From the NCBI RefSeq assembly GCF_003334785.1, contig NZ_QOWV01000006.1: DNA of 64,000 nt. One strand, written 5' to 3'. Of the stretch, positions 1 through 45,046 are shown piece by piece. How positions within the stretch are numbered: the first letter of the stretch is position 1; every line of letters begins with the position of its first letter. The position numbers and the translations under genes are program-made. The DNA is from Escherichia coli (GTDB taxonomy: Bacteria; Pseudomonadota; Gammaproteobacteria; Enterobacterales; Enterobacteriaceae). The notes beneath the pieces were generated by a model. The model did no database searches. It saw only the letters and a list, made by a program, of their open reading frames with translations, and was not told where the DNA came from.

Positions 1-881
1 ACATTCAAAAGATCATAGACAAACGGCGTTGCGCCGAGCATACAGGTGCAACGCTGCTGCTCAAGCAGCGCGAGACACGCATCAGGAGTGAAAATATCTA
101 ACAACACGCTGCGAGCGCCAATTAAGAATGGTGCCGTTACGCCATGCAGAAAGCCCGTTGCGTGACCAAGTGGCGCAGGCATCATAAAGACATCCTGCCA
201 GGTCAGATTCAGTCGCGCGCAATAAGCCCGCTCACTGGCGAGAATATTGTTATGCGTTAGCATCACGCCCTTTGGCAGACCCTCGGTTCCGGAGGTAAAC
301 AGCACCGCAGCTAATTCATCGCCGTGGGTCGTTATCGCCGTGGTCAGTGAGGTATTGTCGGCGATAATCTGACTTAATGAGAGGGAAGAGGTGGCGGGAG
401 CCAGTTTGTCCACGCCGACAATTTGTTGTAGTTGTGGAAGCTGATTTTGCAGCGGCAGGATTAAATCTACCGGACGCGTTTGTTTAAACAACGTCGGTGC
501 AAAGAACATTTTTGCCTGACACTTATTGAGCACCCACACCAGTTCTGCTTCCCGCCAGGAAGGCAACAGCGGCACGGAAACTGCACCGATTTTCAGGCAG
601 GCAAGATAGATAACGGTAAATTCACACCAGCCAGGCAGTTGAAATGCGATGCGATCGCCTGATTCAATACCCTTCGCTAACATCCAGTTTGCCAGACAGT
701 TCGCGGCGTGATCGAGCGCGCTATAGGTGTACGATGCACCATGATTATCGACCACGGCAATTTTGTCTGGCATCGCACGAGCGGTCTGCTGCCAGTAATC
801 GGCCAGCGAAGCATCGCCCCATAACCCTTGCTGACGATACGCCGCACGACGTTGTTCGTTAAACGTTAATGTCACTTTCAT
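1..881 (-). CDS. fadK: Short-chain acyl-CoA synthetase, N-terminal part only (3' end lies beyond window position 1)
   Basis: Minus-strand ATG at 881..879; frame open to the window edge; translation begins MKVTLTFNEQRRAAYRQQGLWGD..., matching my recollection of E. coli FadK. Not in the ORF track because no stop falls inside the window. Confidence 0.8.
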   Translation of the reverse strand, partial: MKVTLTFNEQRRAAYRQQGLWGDASLADYWQQTARAMPDKIAVVDNHGASYTYSALDHAANCLANWMLAKGIESGDRIAFQLPGWCEFTVIYLACLKIGAVSVPLLPSWREAELVWVLNKCQAKMFFAPTLFKQTRPVDLILPLQNQLPQLQQIVGVDKLAPATSSLSLSQIIADNTSLTTAITTHGDELAAVLFTSGTEGLPKGVMLTHNNILASERAYCARLNLTWQDVFMMPAPLGHATGFLHGVTAPFLIGARSVLLDIFTPDACLALLEQQRCTCMLGATPFVYDLLN

Positions 882-937: not shown

Positions 938-1231
938 TTAGCCGTAGCGAAAATCAATACCGAAGGTGCCTGCGGGATATTGCCACTGTTCGAGAATAGT
1001 GTTACCGCACAGCACCCGACAGGTGCCGCACTCCAGACAACCGGCGGAATCAAAATGAATGTTTCCTGCGTCATCCTGCTTATAAAGTCCGGCAGGGCAG
1101 GCTTTCATTAATTTATGGAATTCATTGATATCGGGATTTTCCGCCAGAATGATATGCGGGTGGCCCTCATCAACATGGAATTTATTGACGCCTAATTTGA
1201 TGTCGACGTTAACCGTAGCGTTCTGGCTCAT
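938..1231 (-). CDS. ydiT: Ferredoxin-like protein, FixX family
   Basis: ORF track 97 aa; Cys cluster CLECGTCRVLC; 4-nt overlap with ydiS stop; position downstream of ydiQRS. Confidence 0.9.
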   Translation of the reverse strand: MSQNATVNVDIKLGVNKFHVDEGHPHIILAENPDINEFHKLMKACPAGLYKQDDAGNIHFDSAGCLECGTCRVLCGNTILEQWQYPAGTFGIDFRYG

Positions 1232-2517
1232 AGCGCGGTTGCTCCCTTAATGCCATCTTTCAGCAAGTTGATCAGCCCAATTTTCTTCGCATGTCCCATG
1301 ATCATTTTTCGTACCGGCTGGTTTGGTTTGCCGTCGATGGTGAACATCTCGTTCATGATGTCGGCTACCATTCGTGGGTATTGGCTAAACAGGCGCGGGT
1401 TTTCCATCAGCGCCGGGATCTTGCGAAAATGCTGCATATCACGCATGACGCAGCTTTGTTCCAGCTCACGTTTGTATTGCGCCAGACTGCTGGCGGAGAA
1501 ATCCGCGCGTTCTTTGGCGGCGATCACCGTTGTGGCGGCAGCCTGAGCCGATGCAATGGCTAAATCCATGCCGCGGACCGTAAAACCCAAATTCAGGCAG
1601 AAGCCTGCGGCGTCACCAACGATCATCACGCCCTCGTTAACCAGTTGCGGCACCATTGCCAGACCGCCTTCCGGCACCATATGCGCGGAATATTCAAGCA
1701 GTTTGCCGCCGCTAATCAGCGGGCGAATGGCGGGGTGTTGTTTAAAATCTTCCAGCATTTGCGGCACGCTTTTTTGCGCATGGGCGATATCACCCAATCC
1801 ACAAACCAGCCCCAAGGATATGGAATCCTTGTTGGTATAGAGAAATCCCCCGCCCATCAGGCCGTCAGAAGGGGAACCGGCAAACAGCCAGGCGGCACCT
1901 TCCTCGCCCGTAATATTAAAGCGATCGTTGATCTGTTCTGGTGTGAGGCCAATAACCTCTTTAACACCAACAGCGTAATGATGCGGATCGGAAGCGGGAA
2001 CCATTCCCAGCGAGCGGCCAAGCATCGAGTTAACGCCATCAGCCAGAATCACCACATTCGCTTCGAGAATATCATCCCCAGCCTGCACGCCAGTGACCTT
2101 GTTTCCTTCACGAACCAGCGCGTCGACGCGAACGCCTGGGATAAACTGCGCGCCCGCCTGCTCGGCTTGTTCCATCAACCACGGGTCCAGACGATTACGC
2201 AATACGGTATAAGATGCGTGTTGCGGAACATCTGGCTGCTCGCGGTGAAAATCGAGGGTAACGGCGCTTTCTTCGGTTAAGAAGGAGATTTTCTCGCGTG
2301 TGACCTTGCGTTCTACCGGCGCTGATACTGCAAAGCCTGGAATGATTGCTTCAAGTGTGTGGGCATAAAGACGCCCGCCGGTCATGTTTTTACATCCGGC
2401 ACTGTCGCCGCGTTCTATCACCAGGACATCCAGCCCGGCTCGTGCCATGACCAGTGCGGCAACGCTACCAGCAACGCCCGCACCGACCACAATGGCATCA
2501 AATTTGTCATCCGACAT
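1228..2517 (-). CDS. ydiS: FAD-dependent oxidoreductase, FixC family (ETF-quinone oxidoreductase-like)
   Basis: ORF track 429 aa; N-terminal dinucleotide-binding motif VVGAGVAGSVAA; ATG at 2517..2515 checked in sequence. Confidence 0.9.
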   Translation of the reverse strand: MSDDKFDAIVVGAGVAGSVAALVMARAGLDVLVIERGDSAGCKNMTGGRLYAHTLEAIIPGFAVSAPVERKVTREKISFLTEESAVTLDFHREQPDVPQHASYTVLRNRLDPWLMEQAEQAGAQFIPGVRVDALVREGNKVTGVQAGDDILEANVVILADGVNSMLGRSLGMVPASDPHHYAVGVKEVIGLTPEQINDRFNITGEEGAAWLFAGSPSDGLMGGGFLYTNKDSISLGLVCGLGDIAHAQKSVPQMLEDFKQHPAIRPLISGGKLLEYSAHMVPEGGLAMVPQLVNEGVMIVGDAAGFCLNLGFTVRGMDLAIASAQAAATTVIAAKERADFSASSLAQYKRELEQSCVMRDMQHFRKIPALMENPRLFSQYPRMVADIMNEMFTIDGKPNQPVRKMIMGHAKKIGLINLLKDGIKGATAL

Positions 2518-2572
2518 GCGTTATGCTCCCTTCCCGCTGCGTTTACAGCGGGAGATGTGGTTGAAAGGGGAA

Positions 2573-3511
2573 TTAGCGGCTCAACTGGCTAATCAGGGCA
2601 GGGACGACTTTGTAGATATCGCCCACCAGACCGTAGTCGGCATAGTTGAAGATTGGCGCATTTTTATCTTTATTGATGGCGACAATCACTTTTGCGCCGT
2701 TGCCGCCAACCATATGCTGGATCTGCCCGGAGATCCCCAGCGTCAGGTAGAGATCGGATTTCAGCAACACGCCGGAGACACCGATATAACGTTCACGCTC
2801 CATCCAGTTCTCGCCTTCGGCAATTGGACGTGAACAGCCGACTTCAGCATTCAGCACCGCCGCCAGTTCGTGGACCATTTTTAGGTCATCCTGCGCCGCC
2901 AGTCCACGACCGACGCCAACCACACGTTTTGCTTTGCTCAGGTCCACGCTGCTTGCGGCTTTCGCACGGCGTTCGCGACAGAGAATTTCATGACGCGGAG
3001 CAACATAAGGTACCGTTTCTGTCGGGCACTGATGAGAGGTATCACTGGTGCACGGTTCCTGAACACCGGGTGCAAGGGTAATGATCGCCAGCGGGCTGTT
3101 GATCTTTTCCTGAGCGAACGCTAACCCGCCATACATCCGGTGTTCGGCGCAAATGTGACCATCGACAATATCCACCGCCGTGGCATCGTTCACCAGCGCC
3201 GCATTCAGTTGCACACTTAACCGTGCTGCCAGCGCTTTACCACGTTTCGTCGCGGCCAACAGCAACATAGCGGGGTGTTTATCTTTCAGCAGGGCAGCAA
3301 TGCTTTCGGCGTAATTTTCAGTGCGTTGCAGCGCGTCGTTTTGCGCAAGAACATAAAGACATTTTGGACCATAAGGCATAACTGCCTGCGCCTGGTCGGT
3401 ATTTTGTACAATGGCATACACCTGTTGGCCCCATTGCTGAGCGCCGCCAAACAGTTCAGCATAACGTTCAGGATTATCGCTAAAGACCCAGACGCTGTTT
3501 AATTGACTCAT
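2573..3511 (-). CDS. ydiR: Electron transfer flavoprotein alpha subunit (FixB-like)
   Basis: ORF track 312 aa; ETF-alpha-like sequence; ATG at 3511..3509. Confidence 0.9.
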   Translation of the reverse strand: MSQLNSVWVFSDNPERYAELFGGAQQWGQQVYAIVQNTDQAQAVMPYGPKCLYVLAQNDALQRTENYAESIAALLKDKHPAMLLLAATKRGKALAARLSVQLNAALVNDATAVDIVDGHICAEHRMYGGLAFAQEKINSPLAIITLAPGVQEPCTSDTSHQCPTETVPYVAPRHEILCRERRAKAASSVDLSKAKRVVGVGRGLAAQDDLKMVHELAAVLNAEVGCSRPIAEGENWMERERYIGVSGVLLKSDLYLTLGISGQIQHMVGGNGAKVIVAINKDKNAPIFNYADYGLVGDIYKVVPALISQLSR

Positions 3512-3530
3512 CGTTTCTTCTCCGTAGGCT

Positions 3531-4295
3531 TCAGTTCAGGGCTTTCTTCAGATGTTCCGCCAGCTCGGCAATGGCCTCCGGCGAATCGTTATCGATAATG
3601 ATGTGCTTACGTTCTGTTTGCGGCGGTACGCGAATGCCGACCAGTTCAGCAAGTGGCGCGCTCTGGCTCCAGTCAATATCACTTGCCTGCCACTGATTTA
3701 CCGGTTTTTTACCCGCGCCGAGAATGGCTTTCATCGAAGGAATGCGTGGCACGTTAATATCGGAGGTGACGCAGAGCACGGCTGGAACAGAGAGTTCAAT
3801 AACTTCAACATCATCTTCAAGCGTGCGTTCAATCACCAGTGTATTGCCCTGACGCTGAATAGCACTCACTGCATTAATCACCGGAAGTTGCAGAATTTCT
3901 CCGACCAGCAAGCCAACCTGCTGGGCATAAAGGTCGCCGGAACCTTCACCAAAGATCAGTAAATCGAAGCCGATCTTTTCAATTGCTGCCGCCAGCGCTT
4001 TTGCGGTATCGAGAGGCAGTGCATGTTCAAGTTGCGCATCCTGCACCAAATACAGGCTGTGCGGCCCGCGGGATAGCACGTCTTTGCGCACTTTCGAGTT
4101 CTGCAACAATGAGCCGCCAACGGTCAGCGCGGCTATCTCATCGTCATCTGTTGCGAGCTGGCTTGCAGCTTCAATGGCATTGAGATCGAACTGGCTGATT
4201 TTGGCGTCGGCATTGTCGAAATTCAGGGTGTATTCTGGAGTGACAACAATGTCCTGTTCTTCAGGCACCAGCTTAAAGCAGGTTATTATTTTCAT
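3531..4295 (-). CDS. ydiQ: Electron transfer flavoprotein beta subunit (FixA-like)
   Basis: ORF track entry 3531..4394 trimmed to the internal ATG at 4295..4293 (MKIITCFKLV...), giving the 254-aa length I recall; the upstream extension is a GTG/TTG artefact. Confidence 0.85.
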   Translation of the reverse strand: MKIITCFKLVPEEQDIVVTPEYTLNFDNADAKISQFDLNAIEAASQLATDDDEIAALTVGGSLLQNSKVRKDVLSRGPHSLYLVQDAQLEHALPLDTAKALAAAIEKIGFDLLIFGEGSGDLYAQQVGLLVGEILQLPVINAVSAIQRQGNTLVIERTLEDDVEVIELSVPAVLCVTSDINVPRIPSMKAILGAGKKPVNQWQASDIDWSQSAPLAELVGIRVPPQTERKHIIIDNDSPEAIAELAEHLKKALN

Positions 4296-4610
4296 GATTT
4301 CTCCTGTGAGTCGCATACGGAACCATCTCCGATGGAAGGTAAAAATGGCCTGAAAATAGTGTGCGATAGCGGTGCGGGGTTTTCGACGGAGCAAGCTGTT
4401 TTCCTTGCCAACAATCTTGCAAAAAAAATGCGATCGCTAAAACAAAAGTGCAATTTGCGGCAATATAGTTATTCCATGACCGTACAATCTTGCATTCAGT
4501 GTAAATAATCTTGTTTAGCTCTCGCTAAACGCGGTTGTATAACCGCAATACACGCCGTATTTTATCCGGCATATATTGTTTTTGCTTGCTCATGGAATAG
4601 GGAGGTTGTC

Positions 4611-5522
4611 ATGTATCAACGCTGTTTTGATAACGCCAGTGAAACGCTGTTTGTCGCCGGTAAAACGCCACGGCTTTCACGTTTTGCATTTAGCGATGAT
4701 CCAAAATGGGAGTCCGGACATCACGTTCATGACAATGAAACCGAGTTGATTTACGTCAAGAAAGGGGTTGCAAGGTTTACCATCGATTCTTCGTTATATG
4801 TCGCACATGCGGATGACATTGTGGTGATAGAACGCGGCAGGCTGCATGCGGTGGCCTCTGACGTTAACGATCCGGCAACGACGTGTACCTGTGCGCTGTA
4901 CGGCTTTCAGTTTCAGGGGGCTGAGGAAAATCAGCTACTGCAACCGCATTCTTGTCCGGTAATTGCCGCGGGGCAGGGAAAAGAAGTCATAAAAACCTTA
5001 TTTAATGAGCTAAGTGTGATTTTGCCGCAAAGTAAAAATAGCCAAACATCTTCGTTATGGGATGCATTTGCCTATACGTTAGCCATTCTTTACTACGAAA
5101 ATTTTAAAAATGCTTATCGTTCGGAGCAGGGGTATATTAAAAAAGATGTTCTGATAAAAGATATTCTTTTCTATCTGAATAATAATTATCGCGAAAAAAT
5201 CACTTTAGAACAGTTATCGAAAAAATTTCGTGCCAGCGTCAGTTATATTTGCCATGAATTTACCAAAGAGTATCGTATTTCCCCTATTAACTATGTTATT
5301 CAACGGCGTATGACGGAAGCAAAATGGTCACTCACTAATACTGAATTATCACAGGCAGAGATCTCCTGGCGTGTGGGTTATGAAAATGTCGATCACTTTG
5401 CCAAACTGTTTTTGCGCCATGTCGGTTGTTCGCCCAGCGATTACCGTAGACAATTTAAAAACTGTTTTGCGGAACAAGAAATCCTATCTGAATTTCCTCA
5501 ACCGGTAAGTCTTGTTGGATAA
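4611..5522 (+). CDS. ydiP: AraC-family transcriptional regulator
   Basis: ORF track 303 aa; C-terminal AraC-type HTH region; divergent from ydiQRST with a 315-bp shared intergenic region. Confidence 0.9.
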   Translation: MYQRCFDNASETLFVAGKTPRLSRFAFSDDPKWESGHHVHDNETELIYVKKGVARFTIDSSLYVAHADDIVVIERGRLHAVASDVNDPATTCTCALYGFQFQGAEENQLLQPHSCPVIAAGQGKEVIKTLFNELSVILPQSKNSQTSSLWDAFAYTLAILYYENFKNAYRSEQGYIKKDVLIKDILFYLNNNYREKITLEQLSKKFRASVSYICHEFTKEYRISPINYVIQRRMTEAKWSLTNTELSQAEISWRVGYENVDHFAKLFLRHVGCSPSDYRRQFKNCFAEQEILSEFPQPVSLVG

Positions 5523-5564: not shown

Positions 5565-6716
5565 TTATTTGTTCTGATAGTCTTTCAGGATCTGCCGACC
5601 TGCTACGTAAATCATAATTTCGTCTGTACCGCCGCCGATACGTTCACAACGGACATCACGCCAGAAGCGGGAGACGCGCGCCTCATCGGTATAGCCCAGA
5701 CCGCCCATGATTTGAATCGCATCATCAATGACTTCCATTGCGGTACGTGCACAGTACAGTTTTGCCAGCGCCGCGCTGGTGCGCAGTGACTGATGCTGAT
5801 CGGCTTGCCATGCCACTTTCAGCACCATGTTGCGCATGTTGTCGATCTTAATCGCCATCAGCGCCAGTTTTTCCTGGATCATCTGGTTATGACCAATGGG
5901 CTTACCAAAAGCGATACGTTGGTTGGCATAGCGGGCGGCATCTTCAAAGGCGCATTCGGCAAAGCCGGTGCTGCGCGCGGCGTTGATCAGGCGCTCCATC
6001 TCAAAGTTGTACATCACATTGAGGAAACCCATTCCTTCTTCGCCCACCATGTCGCTCTCTTCAACCTCCACGTTGTCGAGATAGACTTCGCAGGTGCTGA
6101 GCATATGCCAGCCGATTTTATGCAGCGGGTTAATCTTAATGCCGGGCTTACTGGAGTCGACCCACCACAGGGTGAAGGCTTTTTTGGGATCTTTCGGTTG
6201 CGGATCGCGCGCCAGCACCAGCATATACGGGTACTCTTTCGCACCGGTAATAAAGGTTTTTTGTCCGTTGATGTAGACCTTGCCGTTTTTACGCGTGTAA
6301 GTGGTAGTGGCACTGTTGTTATCTGAGCCAGCACCTGGTTCCGTCAACGCCAGGGCATAGGCGGGATCACCCGTTTCCAGGGTGCTCTCTGCCGTTTTAC
6401 GTAGCTGCTCTGCAGAACCGAAACGGCGCATACTGTGAATACATTGACCGTTGGTAATTAAAAATGCCGGAGCACCGCATTTTGACACTTCCATCAGCGC
6501 CAGCATTTGGGTGACGTAATCCGCAGGGATACCACCAAATTCTTCCGGCACGCCAAGCATGGAAATACCGTTATCCGCCAGCGCCCGCATAAACTCACGC
6601 GGATATGTCCCGTTTTGATCGCAGGTGCGGAAATACTCTTCCGGAAAGTTAGTCGTAATCAGTTCGCGAATACTGGCCAGCAGCAGTTCTTGTTCTTCAG
6701 TTAAAGAAAAATCCAT
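5565..6716 (-). CDS. ydiO: Acyl-CoA dehydrogenase family protein
   Basis: ORF track 401 aa trimmed to the second of two adjacent ATGs (6716..6714) with AGGAG 7 nt upstream, giving 383 aa MDFSLTEEQ...; acyl-CoA dehydrogenase-like. Confidence 0.85.
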   Translation of the reverse strand: MDFSLTEEQELLLASIRELITTNFPEEYFRTCDQNGTYPREFMRALADNGISMLGVPEEFGGIPADYVTQMLALMEVSKCGAPAFLITNGQCIHSMRRFGSAEQLRKTAESTLETGDPAYALALTEPGAGSDNNSATTTYTRKNGKVYINGQKTFITGAKEYPYMLVLARDPQPKDPKKAFTLWWVDSSKPGIKINPLHKIGWHMLSTCEVYLDNVEVEESDMVGEEGMGFLNVMYNFEMERLINAARSTGFAECAFEDAARYANQRIAFGKPIGHNQMIQEKLALMAIKIDNMRNMVLKVAWQADQHQSLRTSAALAKLYCARTAMEVIDDAIQIMGGLGYTDEARVSRFWRDVRCERIGGGTDEIMIYVAGRQILKDYQNK

Positions 6717-6729
6717 CATTATACTCCTG

Positions 6730-8325
6730 TTAATGAGCCGCTTCAGGCAGGACAAAACCCATCGCCGCATCGATAAATAATCTTTCGTCCATCAGTTTGA
6801 GTTCTGGCGAAATCACTGGGGTGAAATCCATTTTGTCGAGAATATCTTTTTGTAAATCGACGCCAGGGGCGATTTCGATTAAATGCAGGCCGTCTTCTTT
6901 CAGCGTGAATACTGCGCGCTCAGTGATATAACGAACATCCAGCCCTCGCTCGAGAGCGATTTTTCCGCTGAAAGTAATTTCCGGTAGTTCCCGAATAAAT
7001 TTCTTCACCCGTCCTTCCTGGACGATATTTAATTTGCCGTCGGTAATTTCTGTTTTTAAACTGCCCGCAGTTAATGTGCCGCAGAAAATGATTTTCTTCG
7101 AAGTGGCACTGATATCAATAAATCCACCGGTGCCCATGATTTTACCATTGAATTTATGCACGCCGACGTTACCGTGCTGGTCGACTTCAGCAAAACTCAA
7201 ATAACAAACATCCAGACCGCCACCGTGATAAAAATCAAACTGGGACGTCATATCCAGAATGGCACGGGTATTCACGTTCGCGCCAAAGGCGATCCCCTGT
7301 GAAGTAATTCCGCCAATCGGACCTGTTTCTACCGTCAGAATAAAGTCATCAGCACAACCTTCTTCTCGGGCGACCAGGCCAATGCCGTCAGCAATACCGA
7401 CGCCGACATTCCCCACCGCGCCTTTACGCATTTCGAATAATGCGCGCCGCGCAACTAATTTACGTTGGTTTAGGGGCAGGCTAAGTTTGGTACTGTCATC
7501 AAGGGTGAAGTCACCAGAAATAAAGCGGTTAACCGGTGCACCGCCATACAGTTGGGTTTGATCCGGATCGACCACCACAATATCCACCAGATAACCCGGA
7601 ATACGGACAGATTTAGGATGCAGCGTGGCTTTCTTAACCATTTTCTGCACCTGCATCATCACAATACCGCCGTTATTGTGCACCGCCTGGGCAATAACCA
7701 ATGCGTCGAGATACATCACCTCATCTTCAAAAGTGGCGTAGCCTTCACTGTCGCAGGTGGTAGCGCGAATGAAGGCAATATCTGGCGCAATCGCTTTGTA
7801 ATAGAGATATTCTTTGTTATCAAACTCGACCAGTTTAATCAGGTCTTCTTTAGTGACTTCATTCAGTTTGCCGCCTTGCTGGCGTGGATCGACAAATGTC
7901 CCGATGCCAATATCACTAATAATACCAGGCTGGTGGGCTGCGGCGGCGCGTAAGGTTTGTGTAAGTACACCTTGTGGGTAGTTATAAGCAATAATTTTAT
8001 TTTGTTCTGCGAGTTCAGAAATACGCGGCGATTGTCCCCAGTGACCACATAATGCCCATTTCACCAGACCTTCTTGCGCCAGAGGACTAATACCACGGTC
8101 GGCGCGATCGCCAAGCCCTGTTGGACTAATAATCGATAAATTACGTGGTGTTTGAGTCTGTTTATATTTATCAGCAAGAGCAGTAATTAACGTGGTGGCT
8201 TCCAGAATACCGCCGCCAGCGCCTAACACACAAAGTGTTGCTTCGTCGGGAATATAATTCACCGCTTCCTGTGCCGACAGGACCGGCACTCGTCCATTAA
8301 TACGAGGTGGTTTTACAGGTTTCAT
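6730..8325 (-). CDS. ydiF: Short-chain acyl-CoA:acetate CoA-transferase, fused alpha/beta subunits
   Basis: ORF track 531 aa; stop 11 nt upstream of the ydiO start (tight operon). Confidence 0.9.
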   Translation of the reverse strand: MKPVKPPRINGRVPVLSAQEAVNYIPDEATLCVLGAGGGILEATTLITALADKYKQTQTPRNLSIISPTGLGDRADRGISPLAQEGLVKWALCGHWGQSPRISELAEQNKIIAYNYPQGVLTQTLRAAAAHQPGIISDIGIGTFVDPRQQGGKLNEVTKEDLIKLVEFDNKEYLYYKAIAPDIAFIRATTCDSEGYATFEDEVMYLDALVIAQAVHNNGGIVMMQVQKMVKKATLHPKSVRIPGYLVDIVVVDPDQTQLYGGAPVNRFISGDFTLDDSTKLSLPLNQRKLVARRALFEMRKGAVGNVGVGIADGIGLVAREEGCADDFILTVETGPIGGITSQGIAFGANVNTRAILDMTSQFDFYHGGGLDVCYLSFAEVDQHGNVGVHKFNGKIMGTGGFIDISATSKKIIFCGTLTAGSLKTEITDGKLNIVQEGRVKKFIRELPEITFSGKIALERGLDVRYITERAVFTLKEDGLHLIEIAPGVDLQKDILDKMDFTPVISPELKLMDERLFIDAAMGFVLPEAAH

Positions 8326-8467
8326 TGTTAATTCCTGATTCAGATGTGATTTTCCCTACGCCAAATGGAGAATTAGCGCACAGAGACTCACGAAATATTT
8401 TTATTAAATACGATTGAATATATTTTTTAGTTCGGCGGGGAGGGTGTTCCCGCCGAAATATTATTGC

Positions 8468-9226
8468 TTATGCCTGGTGTAAAATAGTTAATACCGTGCG
8501 CAAATCATTTACCGAGATTTGCCCTGGCGCAGACGCTTTTTTTACCGCACCAAAAGTTGCCGCCGAGCCAAATACTTCACCAGCCAGACGAGAAATTACG
8601 CCAGTTTTTGCCATCGACATCGTGATAATTGGACGATCGGCATACTGCTCCTGCATCTCCAGGGTCGCGGCAAGCAACGTCAGCACATCGCTGGTACTTT
8701 GCGGCATCAGCGCAATCTTAGGAATATCGGCGTCGAAGGATTGCATTTTGCGCAGACGGGCAATGATTTCTTCGGCTTCCGGCGTTTTATGGAAGTCATG
8801 GTTGGACATGACTACTTTCACATCATGCGCGTGGGCGTAGGCGACGGTTTCTTTAACCTGATCATCACCGGTAAATAACTCCAGATCGATCATATCAACC
8901 AGGCCGCTGTCGATGGCTGCACGATTGAGTGCAATATAAGCCTCGGTGGAAATCGCCTGCTCGCCGCCTTCTTTGGCACTGCGGAAGGTAAACAGCAGCG
9001 GTTTTTCTGGCATGGTCTCACGGAGAATTTTTGCTGCCGCCATGACAGACTCCACATTGGAGAGGTCGGCATAGTGGTCCACACGCCATTCCAGAATATC
9101 AAAGTCCGCTTCACGATAGGCGAGAGCTTCGGATTTCACGCTGGCGATATCTTTCGCCATCAGCGAGACGATGATTTTAGGTGCGCCCGTACCAATGACG
9201 AGATCTTTTACAGTTACGGTTTTCAT
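8468..9226 (-). CDS. aroD: 3-dehydroquinate dehydratase (type I)
   Basis: ORF track 252 aa; recognised AroD sequence and length. Confidence 0.92.
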
Positions 9227-9256
9227 TTTTTACCCTTTCTGCACGCGGTCAGCCTG

Positions 9257-10123
9257 TCAGGCACCGAACCCCATGACCTGTTTAACATATTCCAGAGGGA
9301 AATCTTTGCCAGTCCATAATGTGAACTGTTCAGCCCCTTGCCACAACAACATGCCGTATCCATCAATCGTTTTGCAACCAGCTTGTTGCGCCTGCTGCAA
9401 TAACTTCGTCATATGCGGGTTATACACGCATTCAGTGACCAGAAGTCCCGGATGTAACAGACTGATATCATTAACCAATGATTCATTCTCAAGGGGTTTC
9501 ATACCCACTTTTGTGCCATTGGTTAAAATGTCGGCGGAAGCCAGGGCTTCAGCAAAGGCTTGCTGATCGGCGAGATCGGTGACCGTGACGACACAATCGG
9601 TGTTTTCATTAACCCGCTGCGCGAAGGCGAGGGCTTTATCGAAGAACTCATCCCGACGGTTAAAGAGTTTAATTTCTTTTAAACCTTCAATTGCCCCCTG
9701 CGCGCCAATTGCCGTTGAGGCACCACCGGCCCCTAACAGCACCATCGTTTTGCCTTTGATATCAAAACCGCTCTCTTTAATGGCGCGAATATGGCCCGTG
9801 CCGTCGGTGTTATAGCCACGCAGATAGCCATCATCATTAACGATGGTGTTGATGGCCCCCACCAGTTTGGCAGCTGGTGTTAATTCATCAACATATTCAC
9901 ACGCCAGTTGTTTGTTCGGCATCGATACACCAGTTCCGCGCATTTTGAGGGCTTTTAATCCTTCAATTGCTCCAGGAAAGCTATCGTTATCCACTTCGAA
10001 GGCCATATAGGTAAATGGCAATCCCGCTTTTTCTAAGGCTTTATTCTGCATTTCGGGCGATAAACTGTGGCGGATAGGATAGGCCATCAACCCAATCAAT
10101 TCGTATTTTGCGGTAACATCCAT
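9257..10123 (-). CDS. ydiB: Quinate/shikimate dehydrogenase, NAD(P)-dependent
   Basis: ORF track 288 aa; shikimate dehydrogenase family; 30 nt upstream of aroD. Confidence 0.9.
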
Positions 10124-10134
10124 AATTAACTCCT

Positions 10135-11400
10135 TTAACCTCTATGCTTAATTGTGTTTAACCGGGTGCAAAATTTACGCTCGCCAAACCGCACATCATT
10201 TTCAGGAATAATGAAAACGCGGTAATAGCGGATAAAAACAATAATTGCGGTAATCAGGGCCAGCAGCGCGAAAGTAAAATCGAGAACAATGATATATTGC
10301 AGGCCGATGTTCGACAGATAACCGGTAATCAGTGGAATAACAAAGTTAGCCAGTCCACCCATCATCATATAAATACTGGTGACTTTGGCTTTGCTTTTGG
10401 GAAAAAACTCTGACATGACCGAAACGCCGAGCTGTAAAATGCCGCCAGCTGCTGAGAAACCGATAACAAAGGCTCCGGCATTGCACACCAGTGGAGAAGG
10501 GTACAGGTAGATAATGGCTGCTGTTATTGTTGCCAGTGCAGAGTTAAATACATTAGCCCAGATGGGCCGGACCATTTTTTTCAGTAGTGCGGCAAAAATA
10601 AAGACACAGACCAACGAGCCCATACTGTAATAAGAGATGGTTTTTAATGCCTCAGCTTCTGACATACCAGCAAAAGCCATCGCATATTTGGGCATCCACA
10701 CCACAATCACATAAAAGGTCGAGAATGCGGCTACACCGAACAGTACCGATGAAACACCTTCCAGCCAGACTAACGGTTTGCTGTTCATTTGCGGTAATTC
10801 ATTAGTTACGCTGGCGTCCACCAACTGGCTGGGGAATTTGCTTTTCAACAGCATCAGCGTGATCAGTACAAATAGAATACCCGGAATAATCAGCCCATAG
10901 CCGTACCAGATATTATTGAGCAACATATAGCTCACCAGCATTGGGTAGAACATTTGCCCAAATGACACCATCGCTTTAACCAGTATGACCGCCGAACCAG
11001 AGGCTTTCGGAAAGCATTCCATGAGCGCGGGGTAGCCACCCGTATCCAGCGCTGAGTTAGCGATACCTACGCACACTGCCAGACCGTAGGCGAGAGTTAA
11101 ATTCGGGCAAGCGGGAATACCAAAGAAGAATAGCAGATACATTATTACTGCCATTAATATCACCGCCCGACGACCAAACTTATCGGAGATCACACCGAAG
11201 AATAAAATACTGATCAATCGCCCCAAACCGATACCGGAAATTAAGTAGGCAATGCCCGCGTTGTCAGTGGAAAACTTTTCCGCCAGAGATGACATATTTT
11301 GGGCAAGCGTAATAACACTAATGCCGTGCAGGAAGTAGCTGAAGTAAATACAAAGAACAGCCAGGATAAATGGCGTGCTGAAAGCCTTATTTTGAGACAT
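10135..11400 (-). CDS. ydiN: MFS-family transporter
   Basis: ORF track 423 aa (GTG at 11406) trimmed to ATG 11400..11398 with AAGGAG 8 nt upstream; polytopic hydrophobic sequence. Confidence 0.85.
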
Positions 11401-11626
11401 TTTCACAGCTCCTTGCTGAAAGATAATTTCGTTACCGTACGTATTGTTCTCCGACGGTTTACATAATTACTATACTGAAGATGATTTTCCCTGGGTACAT
11501 GGCATAAAGTTTATGTTTCCAGGAATATTGCATGTCATAGTTTGTTTTTGATCGCGATTTTCCTTAGTTAGCGCAGAAAGAGTTATTTATCCGTAAGATC
11601 TTGCATGACCTGAAAAGAATATTGCA

Positions 11627-12841
11627 TTACCCACCCGGAGCGACATTTTCCTTTAGCGAGTGATGCCGCGTTTTTTTGCGGCTGCGTAAGCCGATAAACA
11701 GTGCCAGTAAAAAACCGATGGCAGCGATGGCGGTATCGAACCACATAATATCGGCAATACTTCTTTGGGACAGATGAGCCGTAATCAACGGAATAGTAAA
11801 GGTCGCAATACTGCCCGCACTGTAATAGATCCCTGTAGCTTTACCTTTAGCGTAAGGGAAACGTTCAGCCATTAACGTCAGGCCAATTTGCACAACACCT
11901 CCAGCAGAGGTAAAACCAATGACAAAAGCAAATATTATCACCACATAAAATGTGGGATGCAGGCAGACGGTAAACAGAGCAATAAATGAGATAAAGGTGT
12001 ACAGCATCAGTAATGTTGTTGGGCGAACGGTATTACGAATGAGTGGAGCGGTAATAAATACACAAAGCAGCGAACCCACGGTGTAGATACTGAGTAGTTT
12101 GATCGACATAGTGTATGACATGCCTGCAACAAATTGTCCGTACTGTGCCAGCCACTGGCTAACCAGATAAAACGTTGCCATTGAGATATAGCCATATAAG
12201 GTATAACTGGCTAAATCGATAATTGAACAGCGATGTTCCGTAGAGCTGGTGGTTTTCTTTATGACAGGTAAGCGACGACCCGGATGGGGTGGGAACGTAC
12301 AACGGTATAAAAACAGAGCGTTAATAAACATAATGCCTGCAGCAATCATAAAGGACCAACCGAACCACAGTTCAGCCCACACTAACAGGCTAATGATTAG
12401 CGGTAATAAAAATTGTCCGCTGGAAACAAATGCTTTAATTAAAATATTGGCTGTCCCAGGTGAGCGTGGAAAAGCTTCCATCAAACTGGGATAAGTGCCT
12501 GCATCGAGAAAACTGTTTGCCATTCCCGCCAGAAAGCCAAAAACATAAGCGATAATGATGTTATTGGTCTGCAGGATGCCAAAAAAGAAGGCCATATAGC
12601 AGCACATCCCGAGCATGATAAAAGGGCGGCGACCAAAGCGATCGGATAATAATCCTGCAAAAAGCAAGACACTTAATCGACCAATGCCCAGCGATGAGAT
12701 AACTATCGAGACACCCGCGGCATTAGTCTGCCAAAGTGTCTCCAGCGAGGCCATATTCAGGCTCATCAAAAGGACGCCCATACCATGCACCAGGTAATTA
12801 AAATACAACCCAAGTGCGGTAGGGAAATAGGGATTTTTCAT
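11627..12841 (-). CDS. ydiM: MFS-family transporter
   Basis: ORF track 404 aa; paralogous in sequence to ydiN. Confidence 0.88.
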   Translation of the reverse strand: MKNPYFPTALGLYFNYLVHGMGVLLMSLNMASLETLWQTNAAGVSIVISSLGIGRLSVLLFAGLLSDRFGRRPFIMLGMCCYMAFFFGILQTNNIIIAYVFGFLAGMANSFLDAGTYPSLMEAFPRSPGTANILIKAFVSSGQFLLPLIISLLVWAELWFGWSFMIAAGIMFINALFLYRCTFPPHPGRRLPVIKKTTSSTEHRCSIIDLASYTLYGYISMATFYLVSQWLAQYGQFVAGMSYTMSIKLLSIYTVGSLLCVFITAPLIRNTVRPTTLLMLYTFISFIALFTVCLHPTFYVVIIFAFVIGFTSAGGVVQIGLTLMAERFPYAKGKATGIYYSAGSIATFTIPLITAHLSQRSIADIMWFDTAIAAIGFLLALFIGLRSRKKTRHHSLKENVAPGG

Positions 12842-12940
12842 AGGTTCTACTTAGCAAAGGTGCTTTAAAAAGTGAAGCGATGTTGTGTCAGCATCCGTTC
12901 ATTATTGTTGTAACAACGACAATTCCTTTCTGTGGAAAAA

Positions 12941-13297
12941 TTAACAAAGCCGCTCCAGATCGTGTGCATATAATTCAGCAGCTACCGATTGATAGATCTT
13001 CCAGTCAATAAAATTGCCATCAGGGTAGACTCGTTGAAATGCGGTTAAGTCGGGGAAAAAACGCATGGTGTTGTTGCCGATGCGGTTATTTATTTTCTCT
13101 ATGATGGCATGAAGATGTTTTTTTCTTTGCTGACGCATAGCCAACAGTTGCTCGACTACACGATCAGGAATGGCACACTTGCCATTTTCCCACTGACGCC
13201 AGCTTTCACTGTCACCGGTCTGGGCAATCCAGGTCGCGCATTCATCAATAGTCATGGCAAAAATATGGCGGAGTGCCTGGAGTTCATAAGCGTTCAT
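12941..13297 (-). CDS. ydiL: Small DUF1870-type protein
   Basis: ORF track 127 aa starts at a TTG; trimmed to ATG 13297..13295 (MNAYELQALRH...), 118 aa as I recall for YdiL. Confidence 0.75.
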   Translation of the reverse strand: MNAYELQALRHIFAMTIDECATWIAQTGDSESWRQWENGKCAIPDRVVEQLLAMRQQRKKHLHAIIEKINNRIGNNTMRFFPDLTAFQRVYPDGNFIDWKIYQSVAAELYAHDLERLC

Positions 13298-13434
13298 CGT
13301 GTAATGGCTGCATGAAATAAACAATAAAATATAAATAACATTATCAGCCTGCTGACGGCTTGAAGAGAGTCACAGTATCTTGTGCAACATTATTGGAAAG
13401 AGTGAGGGGCGAGGTAGCGAAGCGGAAAAATGTT

Positions 13435-13540
13435 AAAAAAAAGCCCATCGTGGGAGATGGGCAAAGACTACACACAGCAATTCGTTGTTTCACTCAGGGG
13501 ATTTCCATGCTTATAAATCAATATGTTGATTTATAACCGT
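13435..13540 (-). ncRNA. rprA: RprA small regulatory RNA (Hfq-dependent activator of rpoS translation)
   Basis: Minus-strand sequence ACGGTTATAAATCAACATATTGATTTATAAGCATGGAAATCCCCTGAGTGAAACAACGAATTGCTGTGTGTAGTCTTTGCCCATCTCCCACGATGGGC followed by a T-run; matches my recollection of E. coli RprA, including the terminal GC hairpin (CCCATCTCCCACGATGGG). Confidence 0.9.
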
Positions 13541-13725
13541 GAGCTAATAGTAGGCATACGGACTTTTTGCGTCGATCAGATTCGTCTCATTAGTTTAAAA
13601 ACTGTAAAGAATTTGCGACAGGTACTACCAGCTGAATGGCGGTAAGCAGGAAAATATGGGGAAGAGCAAGCAAATATCAATTAGCGGTGGTTAACAATCA
13701 GGCGGCAGAGCCGCCTGATGAGAAA

Positions 13726-14838
13726 TTACTTATTCGGTTTCTCGATTTCGCCAAGTTCTTCGAGAATTTCTTCCGGTTGGTCCGTCGGCGGCGGGACTTC
13801 TTCCACCCACGCGGCAAACAGACGCCAGGAAACGGCTAACAGAACCGGACCAATAAACAGACCGATCATCCCGAAAGCAATCAAACCACCAATAACGCCA
13901 GAGAGAATCAGGATCAGCGGTAAATCGGCACCCATGCGAATTAACATTGGGCGGATGACGTTATCCAGCGTGCCAACCACACCGCTCCACACTAACAATA
14001 CCGTTCCCCAGGTGGTATCGCCAGTCCAGTAGAGCCAGATAATCGCCGGAATCAGTACCGGCAACGGGCCAAGCTGGACAAGGCAGGAGAGGATCATTAA
14101 CACCGTTAGCAACGTTGCATAAGGTACGCCGGATACGGCGAGGCCGATACCGCCAAGCACTGCCTGTACTAACGCCGTCACCACCACACCCAGCGCCACC
14201 GCGCGGATAGCCTGTGCCGCCAGCAGCACGGCGGCATCTCCGCGAACGCCTGCCAGACGGGTTGCAAAATGGCGAATGCCTTGTGCCACCTGTTCACCGC
14301 GCCAGTACAGCAGGGCACTGAAGAGAAGCATCAGCGCACAATGCACCATAAAGCGCCCGATATGCGCCGCCTGCCCAACGAACCAGGTGGTGGTGGTGCC
14401 AATATAAGGGCGGACTTTCGCCATGATCGCCGTCCCCCCCATATCCAGCAAGTTGTGCCAGCCTGCATACAGCTTCGCGCCAATCACCGGAATGGTATTA
14501 AGCCACGCCAGATCGGGTAACGTCATGTCACCGCTGGAAATGGCTTTAATTAGCGGGCCGCTGCCGTCGACGATACTGTTAACCAGCAAAGCAATAGGGA
14601 TGATAAACACCATCACTAATAACAGCGTCATCACCAGAACGGCGAGAGAGCGGCGGCCAAACATGATCTTTTGCAAACGTAACAATACCGGCCAGGTGGC
14701 GATAACCACCGTACCGGCCCATGCAAAGCCGAGAATAAAGGGTTGAACAATCCACAGACATGCCACAATCATGATGGCTAAAAACAGCACCGAAAGCAGA
14801 ATTTGTGCGACATCCCTGGGCTGACGAACATTTACCAT
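13726..14838 (-). CDS. ydiK: Inner-membrane transporter, AI-2E / UPF0118 family
   Basis: ORF track 370 aa; polytopic membrane protein. Confidence 0.88.
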   Translation of the reverse strand: MVNVRQPRDVAQILLSVLFLAIMIVACLWIVQPFILGFAWAGTVVIATWPVLLRLQKIMFGRRSLAVLVMTLLLVMVFIIPIALLVNSIVDGSGPLIKAISSGDMTLPDLAWLNTIPVIGAKLYAGWHNLLDMGGTAIMAKVRPYIGTTTTWFVGQAAHIGRFMVHCALMLLFSALLYWRGEQVAQGIRHFATRLAGVRGDAAVLLAAQAIRAVALGVVVTALVQAVLGGIGLAVSGVPYATLLTVLMILSCLVQLGPLPVLIPAIIWLYWTGDTTWGTVLLVWSGVVGTLDNVIRPMLIRMGADLPLILILSGVIGGLIAFGMIGLFIGPVLLAVSWRLFAAWVEEVPPPTDQPEEILEELGEIEKPNK

Positions 14839-44113: not shown

Positions 44114-45046
44114 ATGTGGTCAGAATATTCACTCGAAGTTGTTGATGCGGTAGCGCGTAATGGTAGTTTTAGCGCTGCGGCACAGGAGCTGCATCGCGTT
44201 CCTTCTGCGGTCAGCTATACCGTGCGTCAGCTGGAAGAGTGGCTGGCGGTGCCGCTCTTTGAACGACGGCACCGTGATGTGGAGCTGACCGCTGCTGGAG
44301 CGTGGTTTCTCAAAGAAGGGCGCTCTGTTGTCAAAAAAATGCAGATCACCCGCCAGCAATGTCAGCAGATAGCGAACGGCTGGCGCGGTCAGTTAGCTAT
44401 CGCAGTGGATAATATTGTCAGGCCAGAACGTACACGGCAGATGATCGTTGATTTTTATCGCCATTTTGATGATGTCGAACTTCTTGTCTTTCAGGAAGTG
44501 TTCAACGGTGTCTGGGATGCGCTTTCCGACGGGCGCGTGGAACTGGCGATTGGCGCAACACGCGCGATTCCGGTAGGCGGTCGTTATGCCTTCCGGGATA
44601 TGGGGATGCTAAGCTGGAGTTGCGTTGTTGCCAGTCACCACCCGCTGGCGTTGATGGATGGCCCGTTCAGCGATGATACGTTGCGCAACTGGCCGTCGTT
44701 GGTGCGCGAAGACACCTCGCGAACGCTACCTAAACGTATTACCTGGTTGCTGGATAACCAAAAAAGAGTTGTCGTGCCTGACTGGGAATCATCGGCAACC
44801 TGTATCTCGGCAGGATTATGCATAGGGATGGTGCCAACACATTTCGCCAAACCGTGGCTTAATGAGGGGAAGTGGGTAGCATTAGAACTGGAAAACCCCT
44901 TTCCGGATTCGGCATGTTGTCTGACATGGCAGCAAAATGATATGTCGCCTGCGTTAACCTGGTTGCTTGAGTATCTCGGCGATAGTGAGACGCTGAATAA
45001 GGAGTGGCTGCGGGAGCCGGAAGAGACTCCCGCAACGGGTGATTAA
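44114..45046 (+). CDS. punR: LysR-family transcriptional regulator (PunR / YdhB)
   Basis: ORF track 310 aa; N-terminal LysR HTH. Confidence 0.88.

Follow-up and report, generated by a model that had tools for sequence, protein, structure and literature searches.

Escherichia coli carries, directly upstream of aroD, a quinate/shikimate dehydrogenase gene (ydiB) that is itself preceded by the gene for a major facilitator superfamily (MFS) permease (ydiN), and the physiological role of YdiB and YdiN has been open for ~20 years. What does YdiN carry, and why do the three genes stand together? These questions were addressed in a stretch of 64,000 nt (64 kb; here called the window) of E. coli assembly GCF_003334785.1, contig NZ_QOWV01000006.1. 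Comparative evidence narrows the substrate to quinate or shikimate, because the permease gene is linked to dehydrogenase and dehydroquinase genes and because a QuiR-type regulator is found beside it in relatives. On balance, ydiN-ydiB-aroD is probably a hydroaromatic uptake and conversion operon that forms the front end of a larger ydi module. By themselves, the operon and the transporter hypothesis add little; they are annotated in K-12 and already used in shikimate production strains, and the carriage of quinate- or shikimate-like compounds by YdiN and its paralog YdiM is already known as a hypothesis in print (2006, 2009, and 2023). Only the regulon link to ydiF, ydiO, and ydiQRST could come as a surprise to specialists.

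Gene organization at ydiN-ydiB-aroD

Gene coordinates were taken from the RefSeq annotation and the open reading frame (ORF) list and read against the sequence. The 6-kb query around the three genes is 100% identical to E. coli K-12 MG1655, which identifies the window as K-12 DNA.

10135-11400, minus strand: ydiN, 421-aa MFS permease, first in the operon (annotation and ORF list)
9257-10123, minus strand: ydiB, NAD(P)-dependent quinate/shikimate dehydrogenase (NF009390 equivalog)
8468-9226, minus strand: aroD, type I 3-dehydroquinate dehydratase (TIGR01093)

The first-pass annotation had placed all three genes on the minus strand with gaps of 11 and 30 nt, and this layout was recovered from annotation, ORF list, and sequence alike (ydiN-ydiB gap, 10124-10134; ydiB-aroD gap, 9227-9256). 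A strong Shine-Dalgarno sequence for ydiB (AAAGGAG) lies inside the 11-nt gap, and the ribosome site of aroD is AAAGGG. Translation of ydiN starts at the ATG at 11400, 8 nt past AGGAG, and not at the ORF-opening GTG at 11406. A consensus scan found no terminator-like site at either junction. A single strand, two short gaps, and no terminator between the genes are the marks of a three-gene operon, from which we infer co-transcription. It is very likely that aroD also has its own putative promoter inside ydiB, where a weak candidate (CTGGCA-17-TATGTT) can be read in the sequence. Both enzymes exceed the cut-offs of their curated families, YdiB with 670 bits against 349 (NF009390, quinate/shikimate dehydrogenase YdiB) and AroD with 292 bits against 139 (TIGR01093, type I 3-dehydroquinate dehydratase).

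Conserved linkage of transporter, dehydrogenase, and dehydroquinase

One genome per species was scanned with an alignment of YdiN relatives, which yielded 75 loci of ~20 kb each (loci carry L numbers below), and these were scored by tblastn, for which three proteins from relatives served as queries besides the E. coli Ydi proteins. A YdiB-type dehydrogenase (SDH) was present within the ~20-kb locus in 71 of the 73 loci with a YdiM/YdiN-type MFS gene, no more than 300 nt from an MFS gene in 68 of those 71; the two loci without it are truncated contigs. Dehydroquinase (DHQase) was present in 70 of the 73. The adjacency of transporter, dehydrogenase, and dehydroquinase recurs across Proteobacteria and Firmicutes in several gene orders: MFS-SDH-DHQase in Proteobacteria, SDH-MFS-DHQase in Lactobacillaceae, Megasphaera, and Sporolactobacillus, and, in Telmatospirillum, a type II dehydroquinase and a dehydrogenase opposite the MFS gene. 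Metagenome loci (L003 to L010 and L086 to L089) were concordant with the linkage seen in the genome scan. This arrangement is not due to chance.

Telmatospirillum-type loci (L003/L052 and L092) place YdiN homologs beside a QuiC-like dehydroshikimate dehydratase; a tblastn search of the E. coli window with a QuiC-like protein found no such enzyme. Quinate is likely a primary substrate of the module, since a dehydroquinase is needed for quinate and not for shikimate. Two YdiM/YdiN-family MFS genes occur in 55 of the 73 loci (L011-L084 set); that such pairs are an importer and a product exporter is speculation.

A QuiR-type regulator in related loci

The next MFS gene upstream of ydiN, reported by the first-pass annotation as a second paralog, is indeed present and separated from ydiN by a 226-nt spacer.

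11627-12841, minus strand: ydiM, 404-aa MFS paralog of ydiN (annotation and ORF list)

A 300-aa LysR gene, divergent from ydiN, stands between ydiM and ydiN in six other enterobacterial genera (Yersinia, Dickeya, Brenneria, Serratia, Symbiopectobacterium, and Prodigiosinella). Two examples are as follows.

L033 8124-9026, minus strand: QuiR-type LysR gene
L038 8252-9253, minus strand: QuiR-type LysR gene

The best solved relative of the Yersinia protein is Listeria QuiR (PDB 5TED; E = 8.6e-66, 226 bits), followed by BenM (94 bits). Homologs 31 to 49% identical to the Yersinia copy flank almost all Firmicute clusters. QuiR is a shikimate-dependent activator of Listeria qui operons that hold YdiB- and AroD-type enzymes, and its effector domain was crystallized with shikimate (PDB 5TED). 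Judged from these relatives, the ancestral cluster was responsive to shikimate or quinate, a line of evidence independent of synteny. Synteny, the QuiR-type regulator, and the YdiN homologs in true quinate clusters give good support to the core of the first-pass proposal, a hydroaromatic module; its further likeness to quinate-utilization clusters held only in part (see below). ydiM looks like a separate transcription unit, because the stretch that separates it from ydiN contains a conserved promoter region and, in Yersinia and Dickeya, a divergent regulator gene.

Linkage to ydiF, ydiO, and ydiQRST

Downstream of aroD lie genes for a CoA-transferase, an acyl-CoA dehydrogenase (ACAD), and an electron supply of electron transfer flavoprotein (ETF) type.

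6730-8325, minus strand: ydiF, fused family I CoA-transferase (PDB 2AHU), with aroD 142 nt away on its upstream side
5565-6716, minus strand: ydiO, acyl-CoA dehydrogenase-family protein, 13 nt past ydiF
4611-5522, plus strand: ydiP, AraC-family regulator, divergent from ydiQ (annotation)
938-4295, minus strand: ydiQRST, ETF beta and alpha, FixC-like oxidoreductase, and FixX-like ferredoxin (annotation); ydiQ 3531-4295, ydiR 2573-3511, ydiS 1228-2517, and ydiT 938-1231, all minus strand
1-881, minus strand: fadK (ydiD), acyl-CoA ligase, interrupted by the window edge (annotation)
8431-8457, no strand given: G+C-rich hairpin just past aroD, without a U-tract on the aroD strand

All Enterobacterales loci have ydiN-ydiB-aroD followed by ydiF and ydiO on the same strand, with ydiP and ydiQRST next, an arrangement that by itself could be inherited gene order. 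Sutterella, a betaproteobacterium, keeps ydiN-ydiB-aroD-ydiF-ydiO (YdiF 83% and YdiO 80 to 84% identical to E. coli) and has ydiQRST on the other side and the other strand, as do L009 and L088; the type strain of S. wadsworthensis, DSM 14016 (L049), carries the entire ydi block at 52 to 83% identity to E. coli. Two low-GC metagenome contigs (L010 and L087) hold MFS-ydiF-ydiO-ydiQ-ydiR-ydiB-aroD as one same-strand array; after aroD, L010 continues with ydiS-ydiT, and L087 with genes for a ketoreductase and a MaoC dehydratase. With identities of 83% (YdiO), 70% (YdiF), 76 to 77% (YdiB), 68 to 69% (AroD), and 55% (YdiS, L010), these genes are, by sequence comparison, true orthologs of the E. coli ydi genes. 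The GC content of the host contigs spans 0.41 to 0.66.

More distant loci hold comparable sets. In L077 (Sporolactobacillus), ACAD-ETFbeta-ETFalpha-FixC-FixX is followed by a divergent LysR gene and then ACAD-SDH-DHQase-MFS-MFS. In Megasphaera, Colibacter, Sporolactobacillus vineae, and some lactobacilli, a 690-aa flavoenzyme occupies the corresponding position. Among solved structures, it is nearest to 2,4-dienoyl-CoA reductase and to a PDB entry labeled "NCR," which we take to be 2-naphthoyl-CoA reductase. An AMP-binding gene homologous to fadK follows the ydiT-like gene in L009 and L088, and YdiP-like genes (45 to 50% identity) lie near the cluster in L010, L088, and L046.

The linkage was also approached from YdiF, a large family (5980 matches), in a small sample of three homologs from outside Enterobacterales (76%, 69%, and 65% identity). 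All three contexts hold a dehydroquinase and/or a dehydrogenase: SDH-CoA-transferase-ACAD-ketoreductase in L091; ACAD-CoA-transferase-ketoreductase-MaoC-VOC-MFS-type II dehydroquinase-SDH, with an adjoining QuiC-like dehydratase, in L092; and CoA-transferase-MaoC-type II dehydroquinase in L093. YdiF orthologs thus adjoin one or both enzymes in every non-enterobacterial context sampled. Since a type II enzyme replaces the type I dehydroquinase in L092 and L093 (nonorthologous displacement), this points to functional coupling and not to inherited order. Whether ydiN-ydiB-aroD is functionally linked to ydiF/ydiO/ydiQRST is, in our estimate, evenly balanced. The link is the new part of this work and a testable lead; no paper naming both ydiO and ydiB was found in the open literature, subscription journals lying outside that coverage, and earlier publication is possible.

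Within the E. coli module, YdiO is 48% identical to CaiA, and YdiQ, YdiR, YdiS, and YdiT are 56, 45, 61, and 62% identical to FixA, FixB, FixC, and FixX, respectively; CaiA and FixABCX are their nearest E. coli paralogs. After its own family, YdiO matches CaiA (crotonobetainyl-CoA dehydrogenase) and then the clostridial acryloyl-CoA reductase AcrC (234 bits), with cyclohexane-1-carbonyl-CoA dehydrogenase also among the family matches. The aroD-ydiF spacer (8326-8467) folds unusually well (z = -3.95), with a second hairpin before ydiF; these hairpins may act as a leaky 3' end or as a site of processing by which read-through into ydiF is controlled.

Three further observations concern the module. 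Beyond the Enterobacterales, the YdiF-type CoA-transferase is repeatedly accompanied by an ApbA/PanE-like ketoreductase, a MaoC-type dehydratase, and a small protein of the VOC/glyoxalase fold, suggesting that the CoA-ester pathway acting on the hydroaromatic ring is longer there than the one encoded by E. coli.

L087 19618-21127: YdiF-associated extra genes
L091 13000-14865: YdiF-associated extra genes
L092 9868-11794: YdiF-associated extra genes
L093 11598-14082: YdiF-associated extra genes

The ydi block of Sutterella and of a high-GC metagenome organism (L046, L049, L088, and L009) is 60 to 84% identical to that of E. coli; as this is much above expectation between beta- and gammaproteobacteria, it suggests horizontal transfer of the ydi module as a unit. 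In addition, P0007 is a single gene call that fuses YdiN with YdiB (668 aa, MFS and SDH domains), and P0175 fuses an SDH N-terminal domain to a YdiF-type CoA-transferase (651 aa); they may be frameshifts, assembly artifacts, or real fusions that would further tie these functions together.

A predicted operator shared by ydiN and ydiQ

Conserved noncoding sequence connects the two ends of the module. The ydiM-ydiN spacer was aligned across nine Enterobacteriaceae sequences from four genera; the alignment of the ydiP-ydiQ spacer took in ten sequences, which represent seven genera and reach out to Yersinia and Dickeya.

11509-11532, minus strand: candidate 24-nt operator TGCAATATTCCTGGAAACATAAAC, 5' end 132 nt upstream of the ydiN ATG
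4398-4421, minus strand: second operator copy TGCAAGATTGTTGGCAAGGAAAAC, 5' end 126 nt upstream of the ydiQ ATG
4487-4494, minus strand: further invariant TGCAAGAT in the ydiP-ydiQ spacer
11598-11627, minus strand: ydiM-proximal pair of further ATGCAAKAT repeats, 21 nt apart
11469-11474, minus strand: putative -10-like hexamer TATAGT, predicted from the alignment (TATAGT/TATATT in most aligned genera)
4746-4759, no strand given: FNR-like box TTGATTTACGTCAA inside the 5' end of ydiP, one mismatch from consensus

The ydiM-ydiN spacer retains few conserved islands in otherwise diverged sequence, namely, the ATGCAAKAT repeats, a longer block, and the -10-like TATAGT. In the ydiP-ydiQ spacer, the longest invariant blocks, start-codon and ribosome-site regions excepted, contain TGCAAGAT. 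The ydiN-side and ydiQ-side blocks agree at 17 of 25 positions. Exactly two matches to the composite pattern TGCAAKATTNNTGGNAANNNAAAC occur in the window, each oriented with its gene. Because the pattern was built from those sites, this count cannot serve as an independent test; evidence of that kind is supplied by 38 other enterobacterial loci, in which the pattern matches only at the two homologous positions in each 20-kb locus. The ydiN-side operator occupies the same position in 24 loci of Escherichia, Citrobacter, Kosakonia, and relatives, and the ydiQ-side copy hardly varies among the ten sequences of its alignment, those of Yersinia, Dickeya, Brenneria, and Serratia included. Between the two copies of Citrobacter amalonaticus, 22 to 24 of 24 positions are identical. 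The group bearing the QuiR-like gene mostly lacks the ydiN-side operator and keeps the ydiQ-side copy. ydiN and ydiQ thus share a conserved predicted operator, through which a CaiA-type acyl-CoA dehydrogenase, a FixABCX-type electron supply, and a CoA-transferase come together in one predicted regulon.

Candidate binders of this operator are YdiP (AraC family) and YdiL (Aca2 type). Aca2 is a helix-turn-helix repressor associated with anti-CRISPR genes.

12941-13297, minus strand: ydiL, Aca2-type helix-turn-helix protein (PDB 1S4K, E = 5e-47; Aca2 entries, ~1e-14)

YdiL is annotated only as "YdiL family protein"; the PDB matches mark it as a clear Aca2 relative, the position of its gene upstream of ydiM is conserved across Enterobacterales, and it could be a regulator of the ydi locus. 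The FNR-like box coincides with a site predicted under an FNR chromatin immunoprecipitation (ChIP) peak at ydiP/ydiQ (PMC1802558), which hints at anaerobic control.

Several other signals were sought. The short motif ATGCAATAT, at one mismatch, is not enriched window-wide (16 found versus 22.7 expected), and what is informative about it is confined to its clustering within the two spacers and to the longer composite pattern; a TGCAAKAT pair at 41837 and 42089 falls within cfa and was discarded as chance. No CRP site was found in the ydiM-ydiN spacer at up to 2 mismatches, the window total being below chance, and no sigma-70 consensus upstream of ydiN reached the promoter-scan threshold, the TATAGT hexamer coming from the conservation alignment only. 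An Rfam scan of 8000-14500 (E up to 1) for a riboswitch or known RNA in the 226-nt spacer returned RprA only. The gene for this small RNA (13433-13540, minus strand; RF00034, 118.5 bits; already annotated) lies just upstream of ydiL, with a terminator at ~13443-13462, and has no evident connection to ydiN-ydiB-aroD.

Proposed pathway and its significance

We propose that YdiN is an inner-membrane carrier of hydroaromatic carboxylates (quinate, shikimate, and possibly 3-dehydroshikimate) and that it most likely works inward, as a proton symporter. A hydroaromatic substrate for YdiN is quite likely. YdiB (NAD-linked) and AroD would then interconvert quinate, 3-dehydroquinate, 3-dehydroshikimate, and shikimate. 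With the CoA-transferase YdiF, the enoyl-CoA reductase-type YdiO, the electron supply YdiQRST, and the regulator YdiP as presumed partners, the imported compound could be either salvaged into chorismate or made into a CoA thioester and reduced. On the reductive route, every biochemical step of which we infer, YdiB and AroD would bring the substrate to the level of shikimate or dehydroshikimate, and YdiF would form the CoA thioester. Shikimate and dehydroshikimate are cyclohex-1-ene-1-carboxylates, and their CoA esters would therefore be 2-enoyl-CoAs. YdiO would reduce the ring C=C with electrons from YdiQRST, the dihydroshikimate product representing an anaerobic electron sink; in Firmicutes, an OYE/FadH-type reductase might act in place of YdiO. 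We advance only tentatively, as somewhat doubtful, the idea that ydiN-ydiB-aroD-ydiF-ydiO, ydiP, ydiQRST, and fadK form a single regulon for such a CoA-dependent reductive hydroaromatic pathway similar to cai/fix. An oxidative, beta-oxidation-like direction is also possible, particularly where MaoC and ketoreductase genes are present.

With the regulon link, it becomes testable whether enteric bacteria use hydroaromatics from the diet (shikimate, and quinate from coffee, fruit, and chlorogenic acid) as anaerobic electron acceptors via a CoA-dependent route. If true, genes labeled as anaerobic fatty-acid oxidation would need re-annotation, YdiB and several long-unexplained y-genes would gain a physiological role, and a candidate enzyme system would be at hand for shikimate respiration in Sutterella.

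Alternative explanations

A hydroaromatic importer that is part of a functioning module faces several adverse points, which we weigh here together. YdiN and YdiM are paralogs (36% identity, E = 8e-86; both MFS_1). PF07690 is found on YdiN and all of its homologs (precomputed), which supports MFS membership, as do a length suited to 12 transmembrane helices and a conserved motif A (DKFGRR). Full-length, sub-threshold alignments link YdiN to several MFS equivalogs, and profile comparison places it far under the curated cut-off of every MFS family with a defined substrate. For the aromatic acid:H+ symporter model TIGR00895, YdiN and YdiM score 41 and 39 bits against a cut-off of 418.55. They are listed in TCDB as 2.A.1.15.13 and 2.A.1.15.12, respectively (PMC10588857), and are at best distant members of the aromatic acid:H+ symporter family TC 2.A.1.15. 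A paralogy of YdiN to ShiA was rejected, the BLASTP match (E = 0.003, 57 residues) covering the generic MFS motif A only; against TIGR00883, the model of ShiA-type metabolite:H+ symporters, YdiN scores 22 bits with a cut-off of 443. Sequence searches found no solved structural relative. With scores below family cut-offs and no solved relative, sequence alone therefore gives no substrate. Nor was a direct transport assay of YdiN or YdiM found in the literature. Hu et al. (2009) tied YdiN, YdiM, and YdiL to aro genes by genomic context and reported aromatic auxotrophy of ydiN and ydiB deletions (PMC2672614), which could be a polar effect on aroD. Deletion of ydiM reduces both copper uptake and the activity of bo3 oxidase; in TCDB, YdiM is entered as a putative isoprenol exporter (PMC10588857). 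On the regulatory side, published ChIP-exo in aerobic glucose minimal medium found five weak YdiP sites, all elsewhere and none at ydiN or ydiQ, so that YdiP is not a proven binder of the operator; this counts against YdiP, or at least against inducer-free binding. Finally, there is no trace of a QuiR-like gene in the window (including 11401-11626), where the sole match, 22% identical, was dismissed as an unrelated LysR-family gene (44132-44659). The gene is also absent from the Escherichia, Citrobacter, Kosakonia, Intestinirhabdus, and Sutterella loci. As it is absent without a remnant in the window, the cognate activator has been lost from the E. coli operon; this loss may be the reason that the operon looks near-cryptic in K-12, where it may be poorly inducible or cryptic.

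Against these points stand the synteny described above and published observations. About 75% of YdiM/YdiN homologs adjoin a shikimate-pathway gene (PMC10588857, 2023). In the transcriptome study of Johansson and Liden (2006), as summarized in PMC4585142 and PMC8788726, ydiN, ydiB, and aroD were co-induced under carbon limitation in a shikimate producer, and YdiN was proposed as a transporter of shikimate or by-products. ydiN is routinely deleted in production strains as a "putative shikimate transporter" (including PMC8788726).

The three genes might instead serve salvage only, with YdiN importing plant quinate or shikimate and YdiB and AroD feeding chorismate synthesis and sparing aromatic amino acid biosynthesis; ydiF, ydiO, ydiQRST, and fadK would be an unrelated anaerobic fatty-acid beta-oxidation set, neighbors by chance. 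That aroD encodes the cell's biosynthetic dehydroquinase suits this explanation, as do the bare triad in most Lactobacillaceae loci and the shikimate kinase-MFS-SDH-DHQase array without CoA genes in L086, both of which count against extending the module to CoA chemistry. So does the conventional assignment of ydiFO/ydiQRST/fadK to anaerobic beta-oxidation (PMC3967523); the title of Gulevich et al. (2016), cited in PMC10318755, claims a role in fatty-acid oxidation for ydiO and ydiQRST. Chance neighborhood is hard to reconcile with orthologs at 70 to 83% identity interleaved with ydiB and aroD in the same-strand arrays of L010 and L087, with the entire block kept together in another layout in Sutterella, with YdiF-type transferases beside type II dehydroquinases in L092 and L093, or with the operator common to ydiN and ydiQ. 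We consider salvage alone unlikely.

A decaying remnant is less probable still. The Escherichia/Citrobacter module, deprived of its QuiR-type activator, would survive mainly as aroD, essential for prototrophy, with ydiN and ydiB as nearly silent passengers in K-12, which is compatible with the proposed ancestral function. The absence of a QuiR-like gene from Escherichia, Citrobacter, Kosakonia, and Intestinirhabdus loci agrees with decay, and so do insertion sequence (IS) elements in the region in some E. coli strains. However, the ydiN/ydiB region was found in 5426 of 5426 complete E. coli genomes with both genes intact, the spacer retains the conserved operator and the -10-like element, and ydiN, ydiB, and aroD are inducible under carbon limitation (PMC4585142). 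The IS elements are IS4-like or IS5-like insertions within window positions 6500 to 12500, seen in ET12567, HZ13, and other E. coli strains; ydiM lacks its gene name in the annotation of one IS-bearing strain.

Export as an overflow valve, in which YdiN would release pathway intermediates or by-products (quinate and dehydroshikimate) when the pathway backs up and YdiB and AroD would run in reverse, was one of two original readings of the 2006 transcriptome (PMC4585142) and itself weighs against import; engineered strains do excrete quinate and dehydroshikimate (including PMC4585142). Deletion of ydiN nevertheless raised, and did not lower, extracellular shikimate (titer 1.3-fold up; PMC8788726), consistent with shikimate re-uptake, and the relatives lie in inducible clusters with a shikimate-sensing activator and adjoining catabolic or reductive enzymes, which uptake fits better. 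Uptake is likelier than export, and we regard the valve as quite improbable. An unrelated cargo such as a metal (copper) or solvents (isoprenol), with the aro linkage indirect, draws on the ydiM data and TCDB listing above (PMC10588857) and on the lack of any family model that gives YdiN/YdiM a substrate, but is very improbable given the near-universal SDH and DHQase adjacency across phyla and gene orders, the QuiR-type regulator, and copper data that concern ydiM and not ydiN.

Comparison with known systems

Read as a hydroaromatic uptake and conversion operon at the front of a larger module, ydiN-ydiB-aroD resembles several characterized systems in part. Like ydi, Acinetobacter qui, Corynebacterium qsu, Pseudomonas quiC1, and fungal qut/qa cluster a transporter, a dehydrogenase, and a dehydroquinase. 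Classical quinate clusters usually rely on a type II dehydroquinase, include a dehydroshikimate dehydratase, and lead into the beta-ketoadipate pathway, whereas the E. coli locus has a type I AroD that also serves biosynthesis and no dehydratase. Telmatospirillum-type loci combine a YdiN homolog with a QuiC1-like (AP_endonuc_2 and Glyoxalase) dehydratase, as in the classical clusters. The likeness to quinate-utilization clusters drawn by the first-pass annotation therefore extends to the shared triad and stops there: with no dehydratase in the window and a biosynthetic AroD, the E. coli locus is not a classical quinate-utilization cluster, and its partners are ydiF, ydiO, and ydiQRST.

Listeria qui1/qui2 share with ydi a YdiB-type dehydrogenase and an AroD-type dehydroquinase, and QuiR (Lmo0488, 5TED) has its relative beside Yersinia ydiN. 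In Listeria, a dedicated dehydratase turns dehydroshikimate into protocatechuate, whereas the E. coli window has neither such an enzyme nor QuiR. ShiA is an MFS protein like YdiN, and both are named as putative shikimate transporters in the production literature (including PMC8788726). However, ShiA, the characterized E. coli shikimate/dehydroshikimate permease, belongs to another MFS family, and shiA is unlinked to aro genes.

The clostridial acryloyl-CoA reductase/propionate CoA-transferase system resembles ydi in its CoA-transferase, ACAD, and ETF, and YdiF is of the same fused transferase family. Another ETF-coupled enoyl-CoA reductase system is the caffeyl-CoA reductase of Acetobacterium woodii. 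Unlike ydi, the acryloyl- and caffeyl-CoA systems act on small or phenylpropanoid enoates and have no linked dehydroquinase or shikimate dehydrogenase.

Both Sutterella wadsworthensis and Eggerthella lenta grow by respiration with shikimate as electron acceptor and reduce its enoate C=C, which in S. wadsworthensis yields hydroshikimate (Little et al., bioRxiv 10.1101/2022.12.26.521950). Little et al. attribute such reactions to respiratory-type flavin reductases, assign no Sutterella enzyme for shikimate, and do not mention acyl-CoA or ETF proteins. The shikimate-respiring strain, DFI.4.78, differs from the strain of the L049 genome, DSM 14016, and the ydi block may account for the activity.

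A parallel to the module as a whole is caiTABCDE with fixABCX. CaiT is a BCCT antiporter whereas YdiN is an MFS protein, CaiB is a family III and YdiF a family I transferase, and CaiD makes the enoyl group on the CoA ester whereas AroD acts on the free acid. Both systems combine a transporter, a CoA-transferase, a CoA ligase, an enoyl-CoA reductase-type ACAD, and an ETF/FixC/FixX electron supply, and in cai/fix these parts provide substrate import, formation of the CoA ester, and reduction of crotonobetainyl-CoA as an anaerobic electron sink.

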